Virus record (IMG/VR): IMGVR_UViG_3300032235_001069
Coordinates: 21,693-85,692 of that record
DNA length: 64,000 nt
DNA from: a virus
Reading direction: 5' to 3' (one strand)
Shown here: positions 2,839 through 37,870 of the stretch, piece by piece
Layout: each line of letters opens with the position of its first letter
Position numbering within the stretch: position 1 is the first letter of the stretch
The notes under the pieces: model-generated
Told to the model about the DNA's origin: nothing
Databases searched by the model: none
The model's input: only the letters and a program-made list of their open reading frames with translations
Position numbers and translations under genes: made by a program

Positions 2839-3077
2839 AAGTAATAGGTACAAATGGCTTATTGAAGGAATGGTTGGATAAAGAATTTAAAGCTAATTCT
2901 ATTGTCGCAAACGAAGTGAGTTGCATTTTATGTCAACTAGACGATGGAAATGAGATTTATTTCAACAAATCTCCTAAAATCGAACTTACTACCGAGGGTT
3001 TTACAATTGAAGGTCTTGCACAAATAGGCTATTCTATCGGCAACATTAAAGTACTCTTAACAAATATAAACAAATGA
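2814..3077 (+). CDS. Hypothetical protein
   Basis: ORF tightly packed in operon. Confidence 0.6.
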   Translation: MEQISANLKVIGTNGLLKEWLDKEFKANSIVANEVSCILCQLDDGNEIYFNKSPKIELTTEGFTIEGLAQIGYSIGNIKVLLTNINK

Positions 3078-4048
3078 AAGAAATGCTATCTTACAAAGAT
3101 GTAGTTTTAATCCCTAACTACTCTGAAGTAAAATCAAGAGACAACCTATCAACAGAAGTAGATTTTCTCGGAACAAAATTCAAATTGCCAGTTTTGCCAG
3201 CAAATATGGCATGCACAGTAAATTTTAAATGGGCGGAGACGCTTGGAAAACAAGGATATTTTTACATTTTGCATAGATTTTATGATTATTTTGGCAAGAG
3301 TGGAATTCGCGAATGGTTAATGGCTAAAAATAAATCAGGCTTTCCTTTAAGCATTAGTGTCGGAGTAAAAGATATTGATTATGATCTGCTGCAAGATCTG
3401 GCAGAAAATGATTACAATGTTCATTTTATTACTATTGATGTTGCTCACGGACATAGTTTGCAAGTAAAGAATGTTTGTAAATTTTTTCATCAACTTCCTT
3501 GGAAGATTAAACCAAAACTAATCGTTGGCAATGCTGGATCAGTTTCAGGAGCAAAAGACTTGATTGAATGGGGCGCAGATGCAATTAAAGTTGGACTTTC
3601 AATGGGTGCGGCTTGCACAACCTATAATAATACTGGTGTGGGTACGCCAATGTATTCGATCATTGCTGAAATCAAAGAAGCAATGGAAAACAAAATCATG
3701 CCAAAAGTTCCAATTATCGCTGATGGACAAGTAAGAGAAGTGGGAGATTCCTGTAAAGCCCTCCATGCTGGAGCAGATATGGTTATGGTTGGCGGTATGT
3801 TTGCGGCTTGCCATGACAGTGCGGCTCCTTTTAATGGAGACAAGAAAATCTTTTATGGTTCTGCTTCTGCAAGAAATAAAGGCGAAGACAAATATACCGA
3901 AGGAAGAGAAAGTTTAATTGATTTATCTCAAGATTCAGTAATCGATTTGTTAAAAAGATTCGAACAAGGAATTAAATCATCAATGTCATATGCTGGGGCA
4001 TCATCTCCATACGAATTGTGTAAAATGGAAGTAAGGAAAAGAGTATGA
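3074..4048 (+). CDS. guaC: GMP reductase (IMPDH/GMPR family)
   Basis: PANM, IDVAHGH, GADAIKVG..G.ACTT, IIADG, MVMVGGMFA, SSMSYAG motifs; no CBS domains. Confidence 0.85.
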   Translation: MKEMLSYKDVVLIPNYSEVKSRDNLSTEVDFLGTKFKLPVLPANMACTVNFKWAETLGKQGYFYILHRFYDYFGKSGIREWLMAKNKSGFPLSISVGVKDIDYDLLQDLAENDYNVHFITIDVAHGHSLQVKNVCKFFHQLPWKIKPKLIVGNAGSVSGAKDLIEWGADAIKVGLSMGAACTTYNNTGVGTPMYSIIAEIKEAMENKIMPKVPIIADGQVREVGDSCKALHAGADMVMVGGMFAACHDSAAPFNGDKKIFYGSASARNKGEDKYTEGRESLIDLSQDSVIDLLKRFEQGIKSSMSYAGASSPYELCKMEVRKRV

Positions 4049-4713
4049 CTCCCGAAACCAAAAACAAAATACAAAGAATTTTAAACTATATAGAATCTGG
4101 CTCGCAAAATGGAAATTATGCGGCCATTTCTCTATATAAGGATGGTCCCAATCAAATCAAACAAATTACATTCGGCAAAAGCCAAACAACAGAATGGGGC
4201 AATTTAAATAAATTAATATCCCTATATGTTCAAAAAGATGGCAAATTTGCAGATGAATTAAAGCCATATTTACAAAAGATCGGAAAAGTTTCAGTAGTAA
4301 ATGACGCAAATTTACTTTCCTTGTTAAAGGGCTCTGGTTCAGATCCAATCATGCAAGAATCTCAAGATGAATTTTTCGATGAACATTATTGGAAGCCTGC
4401 TGTAAAGTGGTTTGAGTCAAACAAATTTACTTTGCCACTTTCCATGCTTGTGATTTATGATTCTTTCATTCATTCTGGCAGTATTTTGAGCTTTTTAAGG
4501 AATAAATTTTCTGCTTCAATTCCTTCCAAGGGTGGAGGCGAAAGAGAATGGATTGTTTCTTACTTGAAAGTAAGACATGAATGGCTAAAAAATCATTCCA
4601 ATCCAATTCTTAGAAAAACAATTTACAGAACAAGAGACATGCTTGCAGCAGTAGAAAAAGAAAACTGGGATCTTAAGCAAGTTTATCACTGCAATGGCGA
4701 AAATATCGCTTGA
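4045..4713 (+). CDS. GH46 chitosanase-like (lysozyme-fold) protein, candidate endolysin
   Basis: N-terminal catalytic E (YIESG), 'ITFGKSQTT', 'QDEFFDEHYWKPA', 'YDSFIHSG'. Confidence 0.7.
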   Translation: MTPETKNKIQRILNYIESGSQNGNYAAISLYKDGPNQIKQITFGKSQTTEWGNLNKLISLYVQKDGKFADELKPYLQKIGKVSVVNDANLLSLLKGSGSDPIMQESQDEFFDEHYWKPAVKWFESNKFTLPLSMLVIYDSFIHSGSILSFLRNKFSASIPSKGGGEREWIVSYLKVRHEWLKNHSNPILRKTIYRTRDMLAAVEKENWDLKQVYHCNGENIA

Positions 4714-4758
4714 CTTTTGAAAACGCTAGATGTATTATCTGGCACATATACGAAATTT

Positions 4759-5025
4759 ATGAATGAAGAAATCCCTACAATCAGCGAAGCAATCAACAAA
4801 GCAAACTCAGCTCAAGTAGACTGCCTTTGGGCAATCTTGAAGTATAAGGAAATTGGTATCTTGCGCAAGATCAAGTGCATGGCCGAAGTTCTTAATTTTG
4901 ATCTGGATTTGGCCTGTAAGGAATTGCCAGTGAATGAAAACGGTTTTATTGTAGATTACAAGAGTCGCCATATGATTCACGACATTCTTCTAGGTAAGTC
5001 AAAGCAACTTGCAGGAAGAAACTAA
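4759..5025 (+). CDS. Hypothetical protein
   Basis: ORF downstream of TTGACT promoter-like site; start moved to ATG 4759. Confidence 0.6.
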   Translation: MNEEIPTISEAINKANSAQVDCLWAILKYKEIGILRKIKCMAEVLNFDLDLACKELPVNENGFIVDYKSRHMIHDILLGKSKQLAGRN

Positions 5026-5029
5026 AAAA

Positions 5030-5254
5030 ATGGAAGAAAAGTCAGTTCCTCAATTTGATGAGTTGGTTTCTGTAGTAAGTTACGAGATCCTTGATGGCAA
5101 GGACGAATATGTAACTTCGTACAGTGCCGATCTTAAAAAAAATACGAATGGTCGTCTTGATGGTCTAAAAATGGCTAAAGATACTCTGAGGTATCGTCCA
5201 GATTATAGACTTTATGAGGTCTATTCTAATGGGTATAGGAAACTGATTGATTAA
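5030..5254 (+). CDS. Hypothetical protein
   Basis: ORF in operon. Confidence 0.55.
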   Translation: MEEKSVPQFDELVSVVSYEILDGKDEYVTSYSADLKKNTNGRLDGLKMAKDTLRYRPDYRLYEVYSNGYRKLID

Positions 5255-5260
5255 TTTAAT

Positions 5261-5336
5261 CGCAGGTTGGACAAGAGGTCAAGTCGTTTGGCTCATAACC
5301 AAAAGATCGGGGGTTCAAATCCCTCACCTGCAACCA
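5261..5336 (+). tRNA. tRNA-Met(CAT), initiator-like (C1:A72 mismatch)
   Basis: Cloverleaf; anticodon arm TTTGG-CTCATAA-CCAAA; TTCAAAT T-loop; CCA end. Confidence 0.92.
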
Positions 5337-5340
5337 ATTT

Positions 5341-5500
5341 CGAGTAACCACAACCCCACTGGTAGTAGGGTGGGATGTAATTGGAATGTAGCATCCTGTA
5401 ACTCCTGCTCGAAAGCGACACCTGCCTCTCTGCGAATGTGGAGTGCATGGATCGGGAATACTCGGTCGAAGAGTGGTGCGACTAATCGGAGAGACGATTT
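5341..5500 (+). ncRNA. Putative structured ncRNA, copy 1 (family not recognised)
   Basis: Several stems; shares GCGACACCTGC...AGTGGTGYGAC...stem-GAGAGA-stem with copy 2. Confidence 0.6.
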
Positions 5501-5506
5501 TTAATT

Positions 5507-5656
5507 AGCTCGTCCACCATGTGTGGAAGGAGCAACGAGGTCACTATGTGACTTCAGCCTTGCGACACCTGCTAGTGGCTCCATGCCGCTAGGTTGAGTC
5601 TGCGCTTGTTAGTTGCGTGGACTAAATCAGTGGTGTGACACTGGGAGAGACTAGAC
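5507..5656 (+). ncRNA. Putative structured ncRNA, copy 2
   Basis: Same conserved boxes with different but pairing-compatible stems. Confidence 0.6.
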
Positions 5657-5665
5657 AATTTTAAT

Positions 5666-5750
5666 GGGTAGTTCGCATAGCGGCTATTGCAGGAGACTGT
5701 AAATTTCCCGACTTCGGTCATCGATGGTTCGAGTCCATCACTACCCACCA
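5666..5750 (+). tRNA. tRNA-Tyr(GTA)
   Basis: Cloverleaf with long variable arm, CTGTAAA loop, CCA. Confidence 0.95.
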
Positions 5751-5789
5751 TTTTAGAAAAAATATAGTAATTATTTACTATATATTAAT

Positions 5790-5864
5790 TCCTCTCTACC
5801 ATAACGGAAATGGAACGTCCTGTTAAGACGTAATATCTTGGTTCAAATCCAAGGGGAGGAGCCA
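5790..5864 (+). tRNA. tRNA-Asn(GTT)
   Basis: ACGTC-CTGTTAA-GACGT arm, GCCA end. Confidence 0.92.
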
Positions 5865-5929
5865 TCTTTTTAAGATTAATGGTAGAGCAAAAATGTCTCT
5901 ACCATTTAAATTGAGTGTATTCTGCAATA

Positions 5930-6274
5930 ATGAAAGAAAAACTTATTATTAAAAAATGCCCTCATCATGGCGATTCCGACTTTGTTTTAGAAAATAGAAA
6001 TGCATATAGATGCAAAAAATGTAGATCAGAATCAATAGCAAAAAAAAGAAAAATTATTAAACAAAAACTAATTAATATTTTTGGCGGCAAATGTACAATT
6101 TGCAATTATAATAAATGCGATTCAGCCTTAGAATTTCATCATCTAGATAGAAAAACAAAATCTTTTGAATTGAGTCAGCGAAATTACTATAGATCATTTG
6201 AAAGAATTTTAGAAGAAGCTAAAAAATGCATATTAGTTTGCGCAAATTGCCACAGAGAAATTGAAAATTTATAA
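5930..6274 (+). CDS. Free-standing HNH homing endonuclease
   Basis: CxxC...ALEFHH...KCILVCANCHRE; start moved to ATG 5930. Confidence 0.85.
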   Translation: MKEKLIIKKCPHHGDSDFVLENRNAYRCKKCRSESIAKKRKIIKQKLINIFGGKCTICNYNKCDSALEFHHLDRKTKSFELSQRNYYRSFERILEEAKKCILVCANCHREIENL

Positions 6275-6283
6275 AAATTTCTC

Positions 6284-6358
6284 GCCAACATAGTTTAGTG
6301 GTAGAGCAACGGTTTTGTAAACCGTCGGTCCTCGGTTCAATCCCGAGTGTTGGCTCCA
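6284..6358 (+). tRNA. tRNA-Thr(TGT)
   Basis: ACGGT-TTTGTAA-ACCGT arm, CCA. Confidence 0.95.
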
Positions 6359-6389
6359 CTTTAATCTCGGTGTAAATATATTACAACCT

Positions 6390-7016
6390 ATGGACAACTA
6401 CAGATTCATTCAAATCCTCCAAGAGCTAATCAATTCTCAAAATAATACGATTGGCACTCTAAACAACTTCCTACAAGAAGCTCAAAATAGTAATTATTCT
6501 TCATATTCAGAAGCTGATTACGGCAATCTACAAAACACAAATCGCGATTTGCAAAGCCAAATAGATAATTTAAATGGCACAATTGGCAATCTTCAATCAA
6601 GCTATCAGCAATTAGTTGATCAAATTAATTCTGGTTCTATTTCAAATAGCGCTCAAACTGACGCTTTACAAAGCTTGGTTTCCGCAATCACTGCAGAAAG
6701 AGATTCCTTGGCGCAACAGTTGCAATCTAAAGAAAGCGAAGCTAATCTATTGAGAAGTGACTTGCAATCAGTCTCGAATTCAATTTCAGATTCATCTAAC
6801 GCATTAAATAATTTGCAAAATCAAATCACTGATTTGAATAACAAATTAACAGAAGCCTACGATAATCTTAATGCTAAAAATGAAGAGCTTTTAGCTTCTG
6901 AAGAAAAAATTAGCAATTTAAATCAAACCTTAATTGCCGTTAAGAGAAAAATCAAAGAAGAACTTGATGAAGCTGAAGCTGACATCGAATCAGCTTTGGA
7001 CCAAATCAAAGGTTGA
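6390..7016 (+). CDS. Coiled-coil protein (Q/N/S-rich heptads)
   Basis: Long heptad periodicity; GTGTAA upstream. Confidence 0.7.
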   Translation: MDNYRFIQILQELINSQNNTIGTLNNFLQEAQNSNYSSYSEADYGNLQNTNRDLQSQIDNLNGTIGNLQSSYQQLVDQINSGSISNSAQTDALQSLVSAITAERDSLAQQLQSKESEANLLRSDLQSVSNSISDSSNALNNLQNQITDLNNKLTEAYDNLNAKNEELLASEEKISNLNQTLIAVKRKIKEELDEAEADIESALDQIKG

Positions 7017-7070
7017 ATCAAAAGATTCTTTGCTAAAATATTTAATTTGCTTAAGTTTTAGTTGTAGCAT

Positions 7071-7142
7071 CCACCGTTACCCAAATGGCTAAGGGAGCAG
7101 TCTGCAAAACTGCGAATGTTGGTTCGATTCCAACACGGTGGT
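7071..7142 (+). tRNA. tRNA-Cys(GCA), CCA not encoded
   Basis: GCAGT-CTGCAAA-ACTGC arm; acceptor CCACCGT/ACGGTGG, U73. Confidence 0.9.
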
Positions 7143-7163
7143 TTATTTTGTGTAAAATATTTT

Positions 7164-7367
7164 ATGGGTTTAGAAAAAGCAATTCTTCATGGTAAGGAAA
7201 AGAGAAAATCCTTTAGGAACTCTAAAGCATTTGACTACTCCTGTCGCAATCACGGTTCATGCCCTTGGTGTTTACATAATCGCACTCATTCTCATCGTAA
7301 AAATAAACTGATTTGTTTAGAAAAGATAAAAGAATTCAATAATGAGTGGAAGAATAGACAAGATTGA
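7164..7367 (+). CDS. Small basic protein with C-x2-HG-x-C-x2-C motif
   Basis: MGLEKAI.HGKEKRK...SCRNHGSCPWC; GTGTAA 8 nt upstream. Confidence 0.7.
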   Translation: MGLEKAILHGKEKRKSFRNSKAFDYSCRNHGSCPWCLHNRTHSHRKNKLICLEKIKEFNNEWKNRQD

Positions 7368-11382: not shown

Positions 11383-12083
11383 AAGTAGATTTAATTGATT
11401 GGATGGGTAGTGACTTGACAGTTGCGAATGCAGCTAGAGTCAGTTTTGACAAACAGTCAGAATGGGAAGTAACTGGATACGAAACGCAATTAGTTGCTGA
11501 TAGAGCTTACGCAGAATATCCAATAAACAAGTTAAAAAATGCAGATGAAAAATTAATTAAGTTTTTAGCGAAGCATAATCATTGGACTCCATTTGGTCAC
11601 TGCATGCTTCAGTTTAGAATCAAGGCTCCAATTTTTGTTGCCCGTCAATTAGGAAAGCATCAAGTTGGTCTTGTATGGAATGAAATTTCTCGTCGTTATG
11701 TAGACAGTGAACCAGAATTTTATTTTCCAGAAAAGTGGAGAAAAAAGAATCCAGACAAAAAACAAGGAAGTTACGAAGATCAATTTGTAGAATTAGATTT
11801 TTCCGAAAAACTATCTACTAAAACTATAATTAATATGGTCAAAGATCATTATAATTTTCTATTGAATTCTGGAGTATGTGCAGAACAAGCTAGAATGATT
11901 CTACCTCAAAACATGTATACAGAATGGTATTGGAGTGGATCTTTGTATGCGTTCGCTCGCATTTGTGGATTGAGACTTAAGCCAGACACTCAGAAAGAAA
12001 CAAGAGATATTGCAAACATGATTAATGATTTAGTGGCAGAAAAATTCCCAGTTTCATGGAAAGCTCTTACGTGTAAAGAGTAG
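11379..12083 (+). CDS. thyX: Flavin-dependent thymidylate synthase
   Basis: NAARVSF, HWTPF, ARQLGKHQ...NEISRRYV, EQARMILP. Confidence 0.95.
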   Translation: MKVDLIDWMGSDLTVANAARVSFDKQSEWEVTGYETQLVADRAYAEYPINKLKNADEKLIKFLAKHNHWTPFGHCMLQFRIKAPIFVARQLGKHQVGLVWNEISRRYVDSEPEFYFPEKWRKKNPDKKQGSYEDQFVELDFSEKLSTKTIINMVKDHYNFLLNSGVCAEQARMILPQNMYTEWYWSGSLYAFARICGLRLKPDTQKETRDIANMINDLVAEKFPVSWKALTCKE

Positions 12084-21339: not shown

Positions 21340-21880
21340 GTATTTAGCTAGAAAAACTTTCCATCTAATAAAAACTGGAAAAGAGCCAAAAAGAAAAAAT
21401 CTATTTAAAAATCTATTTTATCTAGCTGGTTTCGGAGATAAATATTTGCAAATATTGTCTACTGGTCAAAAAGGCATTGACTCTCAACTTTATCAATTTT
21501 GCAAAATAAAAATAAGAGAAACTATGGATGAAAATGTTACGGACTTTATGATCCGTAGCATAATTGATGTCTGCGATAAATATTTAAACATAGCTTCTTT
21601 TAATTTTAACAAATCTTATGTTTGGACTTTAGAAATAGCTTATTCGGATGTGCAGTGGGAGCAGATTGATTTAGAACTTCTATCTAATCACTCTGACAAT
21701 ATTGATATTGTTAATTATTTTCCTAGCGTTATAAATTTTAAAAAAATCCCACAAAGCATTAAAAAAATTCTTGAAGAAAAAAAATTAGAATTTGAGGCTA
21801 AAAAAGAACTCGAAAGAGAGCAGATTATGATTGACTATCTTCAAACAAAAGGCTATACAGTTCAAAAAACAATTCTATGA
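21278..21880 (+). CDS. Hypothetical protein
   Basis: ORF in operon. Confidence 0.55.
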   Translation: MNSKQLNELELNEQLQILKSEYLARKTFHLIKTGKEPKRKNLFKNLFYLAGFGDKYLQILSTGQKGIDSQLYQFCKIKIRETMDENVTDFMIRSIIDVCDKYLNIASFNFNKSYVWTLEIAYSDVQWEQIDLELLSNHSDNIDIVNYFPSVINFKKIPQSIKKILEEKKLEFEAKKELEREQIMIDYLQTKGYTVQKTIL

Positions 21881-36074: not shown

Positions 36075-36560
36075 ATGGACAAGAGTATTTTAGCAGAGAT
36101 GATAAGTCAAGGATTTTCCACCAGAGAAATTTCGAAAAAAATGAATTGCGGCCAAACAAATGTTATGTATTGGATGCGAAAACATAATTTAAATATTTTA
36201 ACTAAAGTGAAGAGCGAAAAAACTTGTCCAAAATGCAAGCAAATTTTAGATCTTTCTTTTTTTTACCAAAGGAGAGGAAAAATTGGAGGATCAGTTTATT
36301 GCAAAGGCTGCACTAACTCACAAGCAATGGAGAGGCAGAAAAAATTAAAAATACAATGCGTTGAATACAAGGGTGGCTGTTGTCAAGTTTGTAATTATTC
36401 TAAATCTTTATCCGCTTTGGAATTTCATCACTTGAATCCAAGCGAAAAGGAATTTAGTTTATCTAGCAAAAAATCGTTTTCTTTCAACGAGCTGATAAAA
36501 AAGGAACTGGATAAATGCATTTTGCTTTGCGCAAATTGCCATAGGGAACAACATGACTAG
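36075..36560 (+). CDS. HNH homing endonuclease with N-terminal HTH; paralog of 5930..6274
   Basis: GGCCQVCNY.K..SALEFHH...KCILLCANCHRE. Confidence 0.85.
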   Translation: MDKSILAEMISQGFSTREISKKMNCGQTNVMYWMRKHNLNILTKVKSEKTCPKCKQILDLSFFYQRRGKIGGSVYCKGCTNSQAMERQKKLKIQCVEYKGGCCQVCNYSKSLSALEFHHLNPSEKEFSLSSKKSFSFNELIKKELDKCILLCANCHREQHD

Positions 36561-36924: not shown

Positions 36925-36999
36925 TGCAACACTTATTTCAAAAAATATTTACGCACTTGTGCGTAATAACACTTGACAGGGAGCCAGGGCTATCCCTGG
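36925..36999. repeat. Cassette-junction element A
   Basis: TTACGCAC-TT-GTGCGTAA; TTGACA; CCAGGG-CTAT-CCCTGG. Confidence 0.9.
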
Positions 37000-37022
37000 A
37001 ACGTAACCACCTCATTCTGAGG

Positions 37023-37597: not shown

Positions 37598-37870
37598 TGG
37601 GGGAGGTGGGAATTGAACCCACGACCAAGCGATTATGCTTACTACTATAACTTTCGTTACCAGAATTTCTGTTTGTAGTCTGGACTATGCCTTTACCGTG
37701 GTATTTCTACTTTAGGTAGGTGATTATAGTCTCTACACGTTCCTCTTTCGAGGCTTCGCTCGACGTTGGGATTTTAAACCGTTCATCGAATTTACACCTT
37801 ACTAATTATTCGTTTCCGAATAATCGACCCATTATTAAGTCGCCTGCTCTTACCTCTGAGCTACTCCCCC
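37598..37870 (-). tRNA. tRNA-Ile2(CAT) split by a group I intron (exons 37838-37870 and 37598-37637)
   Basis: Spliced arm GGCGA-CTCATAA-TCGCT; G1-C72 paired; core matches bacterial ileX-type tRNA as recalled. Confidence 0.88.
37638..37837 (-). ncRNA. Group I self-splicing intron, 200 nt, no ORF
   Basis: 5' exon ends at U33; IGS GGGTCG pairs with CGACT; R box GTAGAGACTA; S box AAGGCATAGTCC; terminal G. Confidence 0.88.

Follow-up and report, generated by a model that had tools for sequence, protein, structure and literature searches.

A phage tRNA-Ile2(CAU) gene that is split between U33 and C34 by a 200-nucleotide (nt) group I intron lies on the minus strand, at 37870 to 37598, of a 64,000-nt stretch of the IMG/VR virus record IMGVR_UViG_3300032235_001069 (positions 21,693 to 85,692 of that record; the whole stretch is called the window here). 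The intron is small and IC3-like, contains no open reading frame (ORF), and is predicted to be self-splicing; we give this reading as a whole a probability of roughly 0.78. Judged from sequence, the group I intron of this freshwater phage is real, has precise limits, and is probably functional. An earlier note on this DNA had put forward the same core reading, namely, a lysidine-type (Ile2) phage tRNA(CAU) split at U33/C34 by a minimal ORF-less group I intron, and this reading is supported on every testable point.

ARAGORN run with its intron option (-i), which the earlier note had named as a check, finds the gene as a 74-nt tRNA(cat) with a 200-nt intron and gives the site as "Insertion Position(33-34): cgact-Intron-cataa"; the two exons together form a canonical cloverleaf. 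The boundaries agree with those given in the earlier note. The 33-nt 5′ exon (37870 to 37838; tRNA positions 1 to 33) ends at U33 (37838), the intron (37837 to 37638) begins with a U and ends with a G, the omega-G (37638), directly before CATAA, and the 3′ exon (37637 to 37598), which begins with CAU, extends from C34 (37637) to the discriminator A73 (37598), with no CCA encoded in the gene. The warning that such a gene is easily missed by standard annotation proved justified: in its default mode, ARAGORN reports eight tRNAs in the window, the split tRNA-Ile2 not among them, and Rfam at its gathering thresholds returns only tRNAs in the window, with no group I match for the split gene. Default tRNA finders and Rfam at curated thresholds would therefore show no AUA decoder for this phage, which probably has one, and they would likewise overlook dozens of other phage tRNA genes found in this study, including the tRNA-Leu(UAA) gene of Agrobacterium phage Atu_ph07.

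The strongest evidence for the boundaries is an empty site. An IMG/VR contig of 79,358 bases (L368), located by way of the ORF that immediately precedes the tRNA (93% amino acid identity), aligns with the window at 95.0% identity over 1,312 nt; the alignment stops exactly at 37838 and, without skipping a base in L368, restarts at 37637, so that the exons are joined at 37838|37637. The tRNA(CAU) gene of L368 is uninterrupted, with ...GGCGACT followed directly by CATAATCGC..., and the L368 sequence is obtained only if the 200-nt gap is placed here. Further metagenome contigs with an intronless tRNA(CAU) match the 3′ exon, their similarity to the window ending exactly at 37637/37638 and giving way to the complement of ...CU. 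Among the DNA metagenome contigs matching the locus itself, none joins the exons across the intron, and a search for sequencing runs with the locus listed no RNA run.

The ends of the intron provide the pairings expected at group I splice sites. The 5′ end reads UAAUAAUGGGUCG, and the 3′ end is the G before CAUAA. The internal guide sequence, UGGGUCG (37831 to 37825), was read from the sequence, and its P1 part was also aligned by cmscan: intron bases +9 to +13 (GGUCG) pair with exon bases C29 to U33 (CGACU), U33 standing opposite G, which is the pairing through a U-G pair that had been described beforehand. P1 is extended by intron U+1 with G+8 and A+2 with U+7. Alternatively, G+8, U+7, and A+6 (37832, the A preceding the guide) can pair with C34, A35, and U36 of the 3′ exon to form a P10 stacked directly on P1. 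A 5′ splice site after intron U+1 was also considered and rejected, since it would give an 8-nt loop, would leave no P10, and contradicts the L368 allele.

Between these ends, the intron combines the U-G pair in P1 and the omega-G with P10 with a P3-P9 core that includes the pseudoknot. The group I covariance-model check that had been suggested for it gave a divided answer. When a 701-nt stretch was searched with cmscan, the Rfam model RF00028 was matched over its full length (model positions 1 to 253), core included, at 36.3 bits (E value of 1.4e-7), a score that falls under the curated gathering score of 50. A search of the whole virus record with RF00028 returned nothing at an E value of ≤1, although the local stretch matches, and was treated as a filter or threshold effect. 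RF00028 had no bacterial sequence among its 12 seeds, and cut-offs of 18 to 20 bits have been used for bacterial tRNA introns (Williams 2020; bioRxiv 10.1101/2020.01.27.920355). A covariance model (R1) built from 24 other phage tRNA introns, with the window excluded, matches the minus strand of the window at 37838 to 37638 with 184.9 bits (E value of about 1e-47; model positions 1 to 200), terminates exactly at the terminal G 37638, and finds no other copy in the whole 85.7-kb record; other family members score between 133 and 189 bits. A second, weak R1 match at 11678 to 11791 (16 bits), which is without Rfam support, was treated as spurious.

The fold is conserved across the family. The 273-nt precursor has a minimum free energy z score of -5.0, and none of 200 shuffled sequences folds as well. 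In an alignment of 26 diverse family members, including the window (A1), RNAalifold recovers P2, P3, P4, P5, P6, P8, P9.0, P9, and P9a. When the P7 pseudoknot is added, standard pairs fill 98.0% of the cells and both sides change in 32 of 50 pairs, whereas sliding the structure by one to three columns as a control leaves only 27 to 42% pairing. The row of the window forms every pair from P2 to P9, including P7, and all 59 listed family-invariant positions hold with that row included. P2 (37823 to 37806) is a 7-bp hairpin with a GAAA tetraloop, for which compensatory changes occur in all seven pairs across the family. P3 (37798 to 37794 with 37724 to 37719) encloses P4 (37789 to 37784 with 37765 to 37760), P5 (37780 to 37779 with 37770 to 37769), and P6/P6a (37759 to 37750 with 37745 to 37737). 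P7 (37733 to 37727 with 37687 to 37682), which contains the presumed guanosine-binding site, encloses the 3′ strand of P3 and P8 (37718 to 37715 with 37697 to 37694); its strands GAGACUA and AUAGUCC do pair as the earlier note had assigned them, and in the 26 introns five of its six pairs are invariant, while one changes from U-A to A-U. The 3′ part consists of P9.0 (37679 to 37675 with 37645 to 37641), P9 (37671 to 37670 with 37662 to 37661), and P9a (37660 to 37656 with 37651 to 37647), the last with a GAAA tetraloop. The 200 nt are occupied by the paired core and hold no endonuclease ORF; the sole ORF of at least 60 amino acids that overlaps the intron is on the opposite strand and extends beyond it.

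From this architecture, a splicing pathway can be proposed. In the precursor, exon bases C29 to U33 would pair with the guide GGUCG to form P1, and a free guanosine bound in P7 would attack after U33. Next, the terminal G (37638) would move into the guanosine site, with P10 formed between CAU of the 3′ exon and the neighboring guide bases, and ligation of the exons would restore the usual anticodon loop of 7 nt, CU-CAU-AA. Once the ends had been processed and CCA added, the host TilS would convert C34 to lysidine, and the modified tRNA would be charged with isoleucine and read AUA, a frequent codon in this AT-rich phage.

The spliced tRNA is very probably tRNA-Ile2. Marks of an initiator are absent: G1 pairs with C72, C11-G24 and U12-A23 occur in the D stem, and the anticodon stem reads GGCGA/UCGCU, not GGG/CCC. 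The 3-70 pair is G3-C70; tRNA-Met and tRNA-fMet genes usually have C3-G70, and G3, A3, C70, or T70 is indicative of tRNA-Ile(CAT) (Silva 2006; PMC1635315). The best matches of the 3′ exon are genes annotated by PGAP as tRNA-Ile in 5,423 of 5,426 Escherichia coli genomes. Compared with E. coli tRNA-Ile(CAT), the computed spliced sequence has just two differences in positions 8 to 49, both in the D loop; its 17-nt anticodon arm and 5-nt variable loop are identical, and the two tRNAs agree at about 77% overall. ATA accounts for 17.7 per 1,000 codons and 24% of the isoleucine codons (the G+C content of the window is 35.8%), and the other tRNAs of the cluster, Leu-UAA, Arg-UCU, and Lys-UUU, read A-ending codons that the phage uses heavily.

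Several features weigh against the proposed reading and have to be set beside this evidence. Apart from the Rfam score under the gathering threshold, P1 consumes three bases of the anticodon stem, which puts the two helices in competition in the precursor. P1 also contains two adjacent U-G pairs, at U33 and intron U+1, so that P1 alone does not decide the 5′ site and support for it comes from P10, from the 7-nt loop, and from the empty-site allele. In the acceptor stem, the tRNA has G4-C69 and G5-C68, not the C4-G69 and C5-G68 used by E. coli TilS; these two pairs are very frequent in tRNA-Ile(CAT), yet TilS determinants vary between bacteria (PMC1635315). The competition between P1 and the anticodon stem would fit an intron that no longer splices, or splices too poorly, in which case the locus would be an inactivated tRNA gene carried as baggage; the existence of a close relative without the intron, which makes the interrupted gene evidently dispensable or replaceable, points the same way. 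Such decay is very improbable for an intron in which every helix is intact, the 59 family-invariant positions are kept, and the R1 score is as high as those of other members, all the more so as the exons still fold into a canonical cloverleaf and a related intron-bearing copy is found in the metagenome of another study (X2 record 4, a contig covering the 3′ exon and the intron).

The identity of the tRNA can be challenged while the intron is accepted, in that the product could be an elongator tRNA-Met that reads AUG and is not lysidinylated for AUA. Besides the acceptor stem, this is favored by the ARAGORN label tRNA-Met, which is given to every CAT anticodon alike, by the finding of no other elongator tRNA-Met in the window, where the remaining CAU tRNA (5261 to 5336) is initiator-like, and by the lack of a match to Pfam PF01171, which would reveal a phage-encoded TilS, in the 85.7-kb record. 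Nevertheless, we consider an elongator tRNA-Met unlikely: according to PMC1635315, G3-C70 acts as a complete negative discriminator against both Met and fMet; the tRNA is identical to E. coli tRNA-Ile(CAT) in its anticodon arm and variable loop; and the phage commonly uses ATA. TilS is present in almost all bacteria, and the phage therefore needs none of its own. As a separate observation, the CAU tRNA at 5261 to 5336 on the plus strand has the initiator marks C1xA72 and A11-T24 and an encoded CCA; the phage thus appears to carry its own initiator-like tRNA. Also in favor of the Ile2 identity is a 441.9-kb contig of a huge phage (IMGVR_UViG_3300029288_005873; L247): beside its tRNA(CAU) at about 4500 to 4850, which a 265-nt group I intron interrupts at the same 33/34 site, lies a gene (4953 to 5636, minus strand) for a 227-amino-acid protein that matches the N-domain of the lysidine synthetase TilS (TIGR02432, 112 bits; cut-off of 93.6).

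The tRNA-Ile2 intron belongs to a family that spans phage tRNA-Leu, -Asn, -Thr, -Ala, and -Ile2 genes. A 16-nt motif comprising the P7 3′ strand and the following junction is present in at least 120 IMG/VR loci, across which 66 of 121 motif matches lie in an intron-split tRNA according to ARAGORN -i; a gapped pattern adds further tRNA(CAU) cases (L037, L246, and L247). Because the first bases of the intron mimic an anticodon, ARAGORN -i often mislabels such genes as tRNA-Leu(taa/caa), e.g., in L063 and L117, and its calls were replaced by those of a splice-then-scan procedure. A scan of IMG/VR with the 15-mer GTAGTAAGCATAATC gave 119 loci, none with an intron-bearing tRNA, and the matches are regarded as chance. 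The nearest family member, at 76.8% identity, interrupts a phage tRNA-Leu(UAA) at 33/34 and has the same GGGUCG guide (L033), followed by the tRNA(CAU) introns of L063 and L117 at 33/34 (74.8% and 72.8%). The best database match by blastn, at 77% over the 157-nt core, is the intron of a tRNA-Leu(UAA) gene (34/35) in a 735-kb uncultured phage; over the A1 alignment, its identity is 70%. The GGGUC guide is common to most members inserted at 33/34, L018 having a close variant, and in all of these the exon before the intron ends in ...ACU, with GACU for the window and the Leu genes and AACU for L063 and L117; this fits a guide-directed choice of new tRNA hosts.

Other members of the family show how varied its sites are. 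Phage tRNA-Asn(GUU) genes are split between U35 and U36 in L013, L028, L036, L059, L069, L074, and others, and introns of the same family follow U34 in a tRNA-Thr(UGU) (L030) and a tRNA-Ala(UGC) (L017). In L056, L105, and L106, the ARAGORN reading of a class I tRNA as Phe(GAA) requires an intron ending in C; a terminal G would make the anticodon UAA. The guide GGGUCG of the L117 intron (270 to 526) matches CGACU perfectly, and its own exon, CGAACU, leaves a mismatch in P1, which may be a trace of a recent transfer from a CGACU-type tRNA. Three full-length R1 matches (111 to 133 bits) lie within 1.8 kb on one strand of L246 (IMGVR_UViG_3300035037_000204, 5445 to 7223), which suggests a cluster of several intron-split tRNA genes. 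In Agrobacterium phage Atu_ph07 (MF403008.1, about 112890 to 113251, reverse; L002, 345 to 706), a tRNA-Leu(UAA) is split at the canonical site 34/35 by a 278-nt group I intron (R1, 161.7 bits) in a region where GenBank shows small hypothetical proteins and no annotated tRNA; being a cultured jumbo phage, Atu_ph07 could serve as a laboratory system for the splicing of phage tRNA introns.

In bacteria, both the tRNA class and the insertion site are already known, and the locus reveals no new kind of system. Williams 2020 (bioRxiv 10.1101/2020.01.27.920355) mapped 5,292 intron-split tRNA genes in bacterial genomes, numbering the loop sites 0 to 7, and distinguished the classical classes Leu.3Ug, Arg.5Ug, fMet.2Ug, and Ile2.5Ug; the seed alignment of that study already holds bacterial Met.2Ug and Ile2.2Ug members. 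Site 2 is the position after U33, and the classical cyanobacterial tRNA-fMet intron hence occupies exactly the site of the phage intron. With an Ile2 tRNA, a site after U33, U at position -1, and G at omega, the phage intron falls into Ile2.2Ug. Our own scan with a gapped pattern, made on one genome per bacterial species, gave at least 120 matches, among them at least 72 bacterial tRNA(CAU) genes with an intron at 33/34, at least 38 of these initiator-like and at least 32 Ile2-like; the latter include genes of cultured Limnohabitans and Polynucleobacter strains with G3-C70, C4-G69, and C5-G68. In view of the catalogued Ile2.2Ug class, these bacterial cases, and at least 66 split phage tRNAs, the earlier description of an intron between U33 and the anticodon of a lysidine-type tRNA as unusual was overstated.

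The phage setting is under-described in print and evidently common. A 2014 review placed all phage group I introns then known in protein-coding genes (PMC3984707), and according to Devoto 2019, introns in phage tRNAs had been unreported before the Lak examples (PMC6784885). Our full-text literature search turned up no description of group I introns in phage tRNA genes. In its remark on phage group I introns, the earlier note is still fair to the printed record, which is thin.

Comparison with individual systems places the intron more closely. Ile2.2Ug introns (seed Gba28.Ile2.2Ug; Limnohabitans and Polynucleobacter) share with it the Ile2-like CAU tRNA, the site after U33, U at -1, the terminal G, a small IC3-type core, and an identical P7-3′/J7-9 motif, yet they are chromosomal and about 245 to 253 nt long and reach about 82% identity over 49 nt only, whereas the phage-borne 200-nt intron is closest to phage introns (73 to 77%). 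The Azoarcus tRNA-Ile intron, with which the earlier note compared it, is indeed a bacterial tRNA-Ile intron and agrees in tRNA species, subgroup, and approximate size (about 205 nt); its P2 and P9a carry GAAA tetraloops, as do those of the window. The J8/7-P7 motif AAGGCAUAGUCCAG in the seed row Aol6.Ile2.5Ug is identical to that of the window. The parallel ends at the insertion site, the bacterial Azoarcus intron being located after the anticodon (36/37; Ile2.5Ug), with a 5′ exon ending in CAU and a guide that differs accordingly. The cyanobacterial fMet.2Ug intron has the identical site, CU|CAUAA, in a CAU-anticodon tRNA, but its host is an initiator tRNA (C1xA72, A11-U24, and a G-C-rich anticodon stem). 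Cyanobacterial and plastid tRNA-Leu(UAA) introns (Leu.3Ug and its variant Leu.2Ug) are of the same intron family in another tRNA, the Leu.3Ug site lying one base further 3′ (34/35). Introns in phage protein genes, such as the capsid-gene and tape-measure-region introns of L003 and L004, which have the core motifs in common with it, are of the same self-splicing group I class and, like the intron of the window, often occur alongside homing endonucleases; unlike it, they split mRNAs, in which translation and splicing interact, whereas the intron of the window splits a tRNA and encodes no protein. The Lak megaphage introns resemble it as phage tRNA introns that vary in presence between related genomes; in the part of Devoto 2019 that deals with them, they are called "enigmatic" and are given no ribozyme class (PMC6784885), while the intron of the window is unambiguously group I.

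The source record is linear, has a CheckV completeness estimate of 59%, and includes genes for the large subunit of a terminase and for a minor tail protein. A run of minus-strand genes consists of a GP88-family gene, a 128-amino-acid ORF, the split tRNA, a gene for a 146-amino-acid HNH endonuclease, and tRNA-Leu(UAA), after which come another minus-strand ORF, a plus-strand gene for a second HNH protein, and tRNA-Arg(UCU). The 146-amino-acid HNH gene (37534 to 37094, minus strand) is free-standing and begins 63 nt downstream of tRNA-Ile2. Its product matches Pfam HNH_3 and HNH, both below cut-off, and, by tblastn, annotated phage HNH endonucleases at up to 52% identity; the 3′ end of the gene overlaps the 5′ end of tRNA-Leu(UAA) (37108 to 37023, minus strand), which is intact and without an intron according to ARAGORN and Rfam. 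The second HNH gene (36075 to 36560, plus strand) is likewise free-standing. Contigs 98 to 99% identical to parts of the locus come from freshwater and other metagenomes of several studies.

Three elements of the window have no counterpart in L368: the intron, the HNH gene lying between tRNA-Ile2 and tRNA-Leu (two genes only 15 nt apart in L368), and the second HNH gene. The intron is, to all appearances, optional and moves horizontally. Identity to L368 is about 77 to 87% in the tRNA exons and tRNA-Leu, versus 95% in the upstream 1.3 kb, and the diverged tRNA tract looks like an imported or converted segment. The difference could also have arisen by precise loss of the intron in the L368 lineage, through recombination with a spliced copy or an intronless tRNA gene, and a comparison of two alleles without an outgroup does not fix the direction. 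We nevertheless find such a loss doubtful, because the divergence of the exons and tRNA-Leu, far beyond that of the upstream 1.3 kb, and the presence of the two HNH genes in one contig and not in the other fit the import of a foreign segment, in either lineage, better than a clean 200-nt excision.

How an ORF-less intron could move is suggested by its neighborhood. In collaborative ("trans") homing, the intron would hitch-hike among phage tRNA genes with the HNH gene 63 nt downstream: the HNH endonuclease would cut intronless tRNA-cluster alleles of co-infecting relatives such as L368, and repair would copy a tract with the HNH gene, the diverged tRNA exons, and the intron. In favor of this route, the HNH gene and the intron are both present in the window and both missing from the 95%-identical L368, and the tRNAs between them are unusually diverged. 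We regard it as a tentative possibility, somewhat on the improbable side. The only IMG/VR relative of the 146-amino-acid HNH protein (L370; 57% identity) is encoded in a tRNA cluster directly upstream of tRNA-Leu(UAA), and no R1 intron was found near it in that cluster, which lowers the standing of collaborative homing; in addition, no HNH gene was found among the neighbors of five other phage tRNA introns. The link between the HNH gene and the intron is thus weak, and this nuclease family is tied to tRNA clusters, possibly to tRNA-Leu, rather than specifically to this intron. The intron-plus/intron-minus allele pair is the most useful new element of the locus: with the HNH genes present in one and missing from the other of two 95%-identical phages, it provides material for testing how an ORF-less tRNA intron moves. 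Just downstream of tRNA-Leu(UAA), at about 36950 to 37020, the window has a hairpin followed by a CCAGGG-N4-CCCTGG palindrome, which is kept in L368 (about 3068 to 3130).

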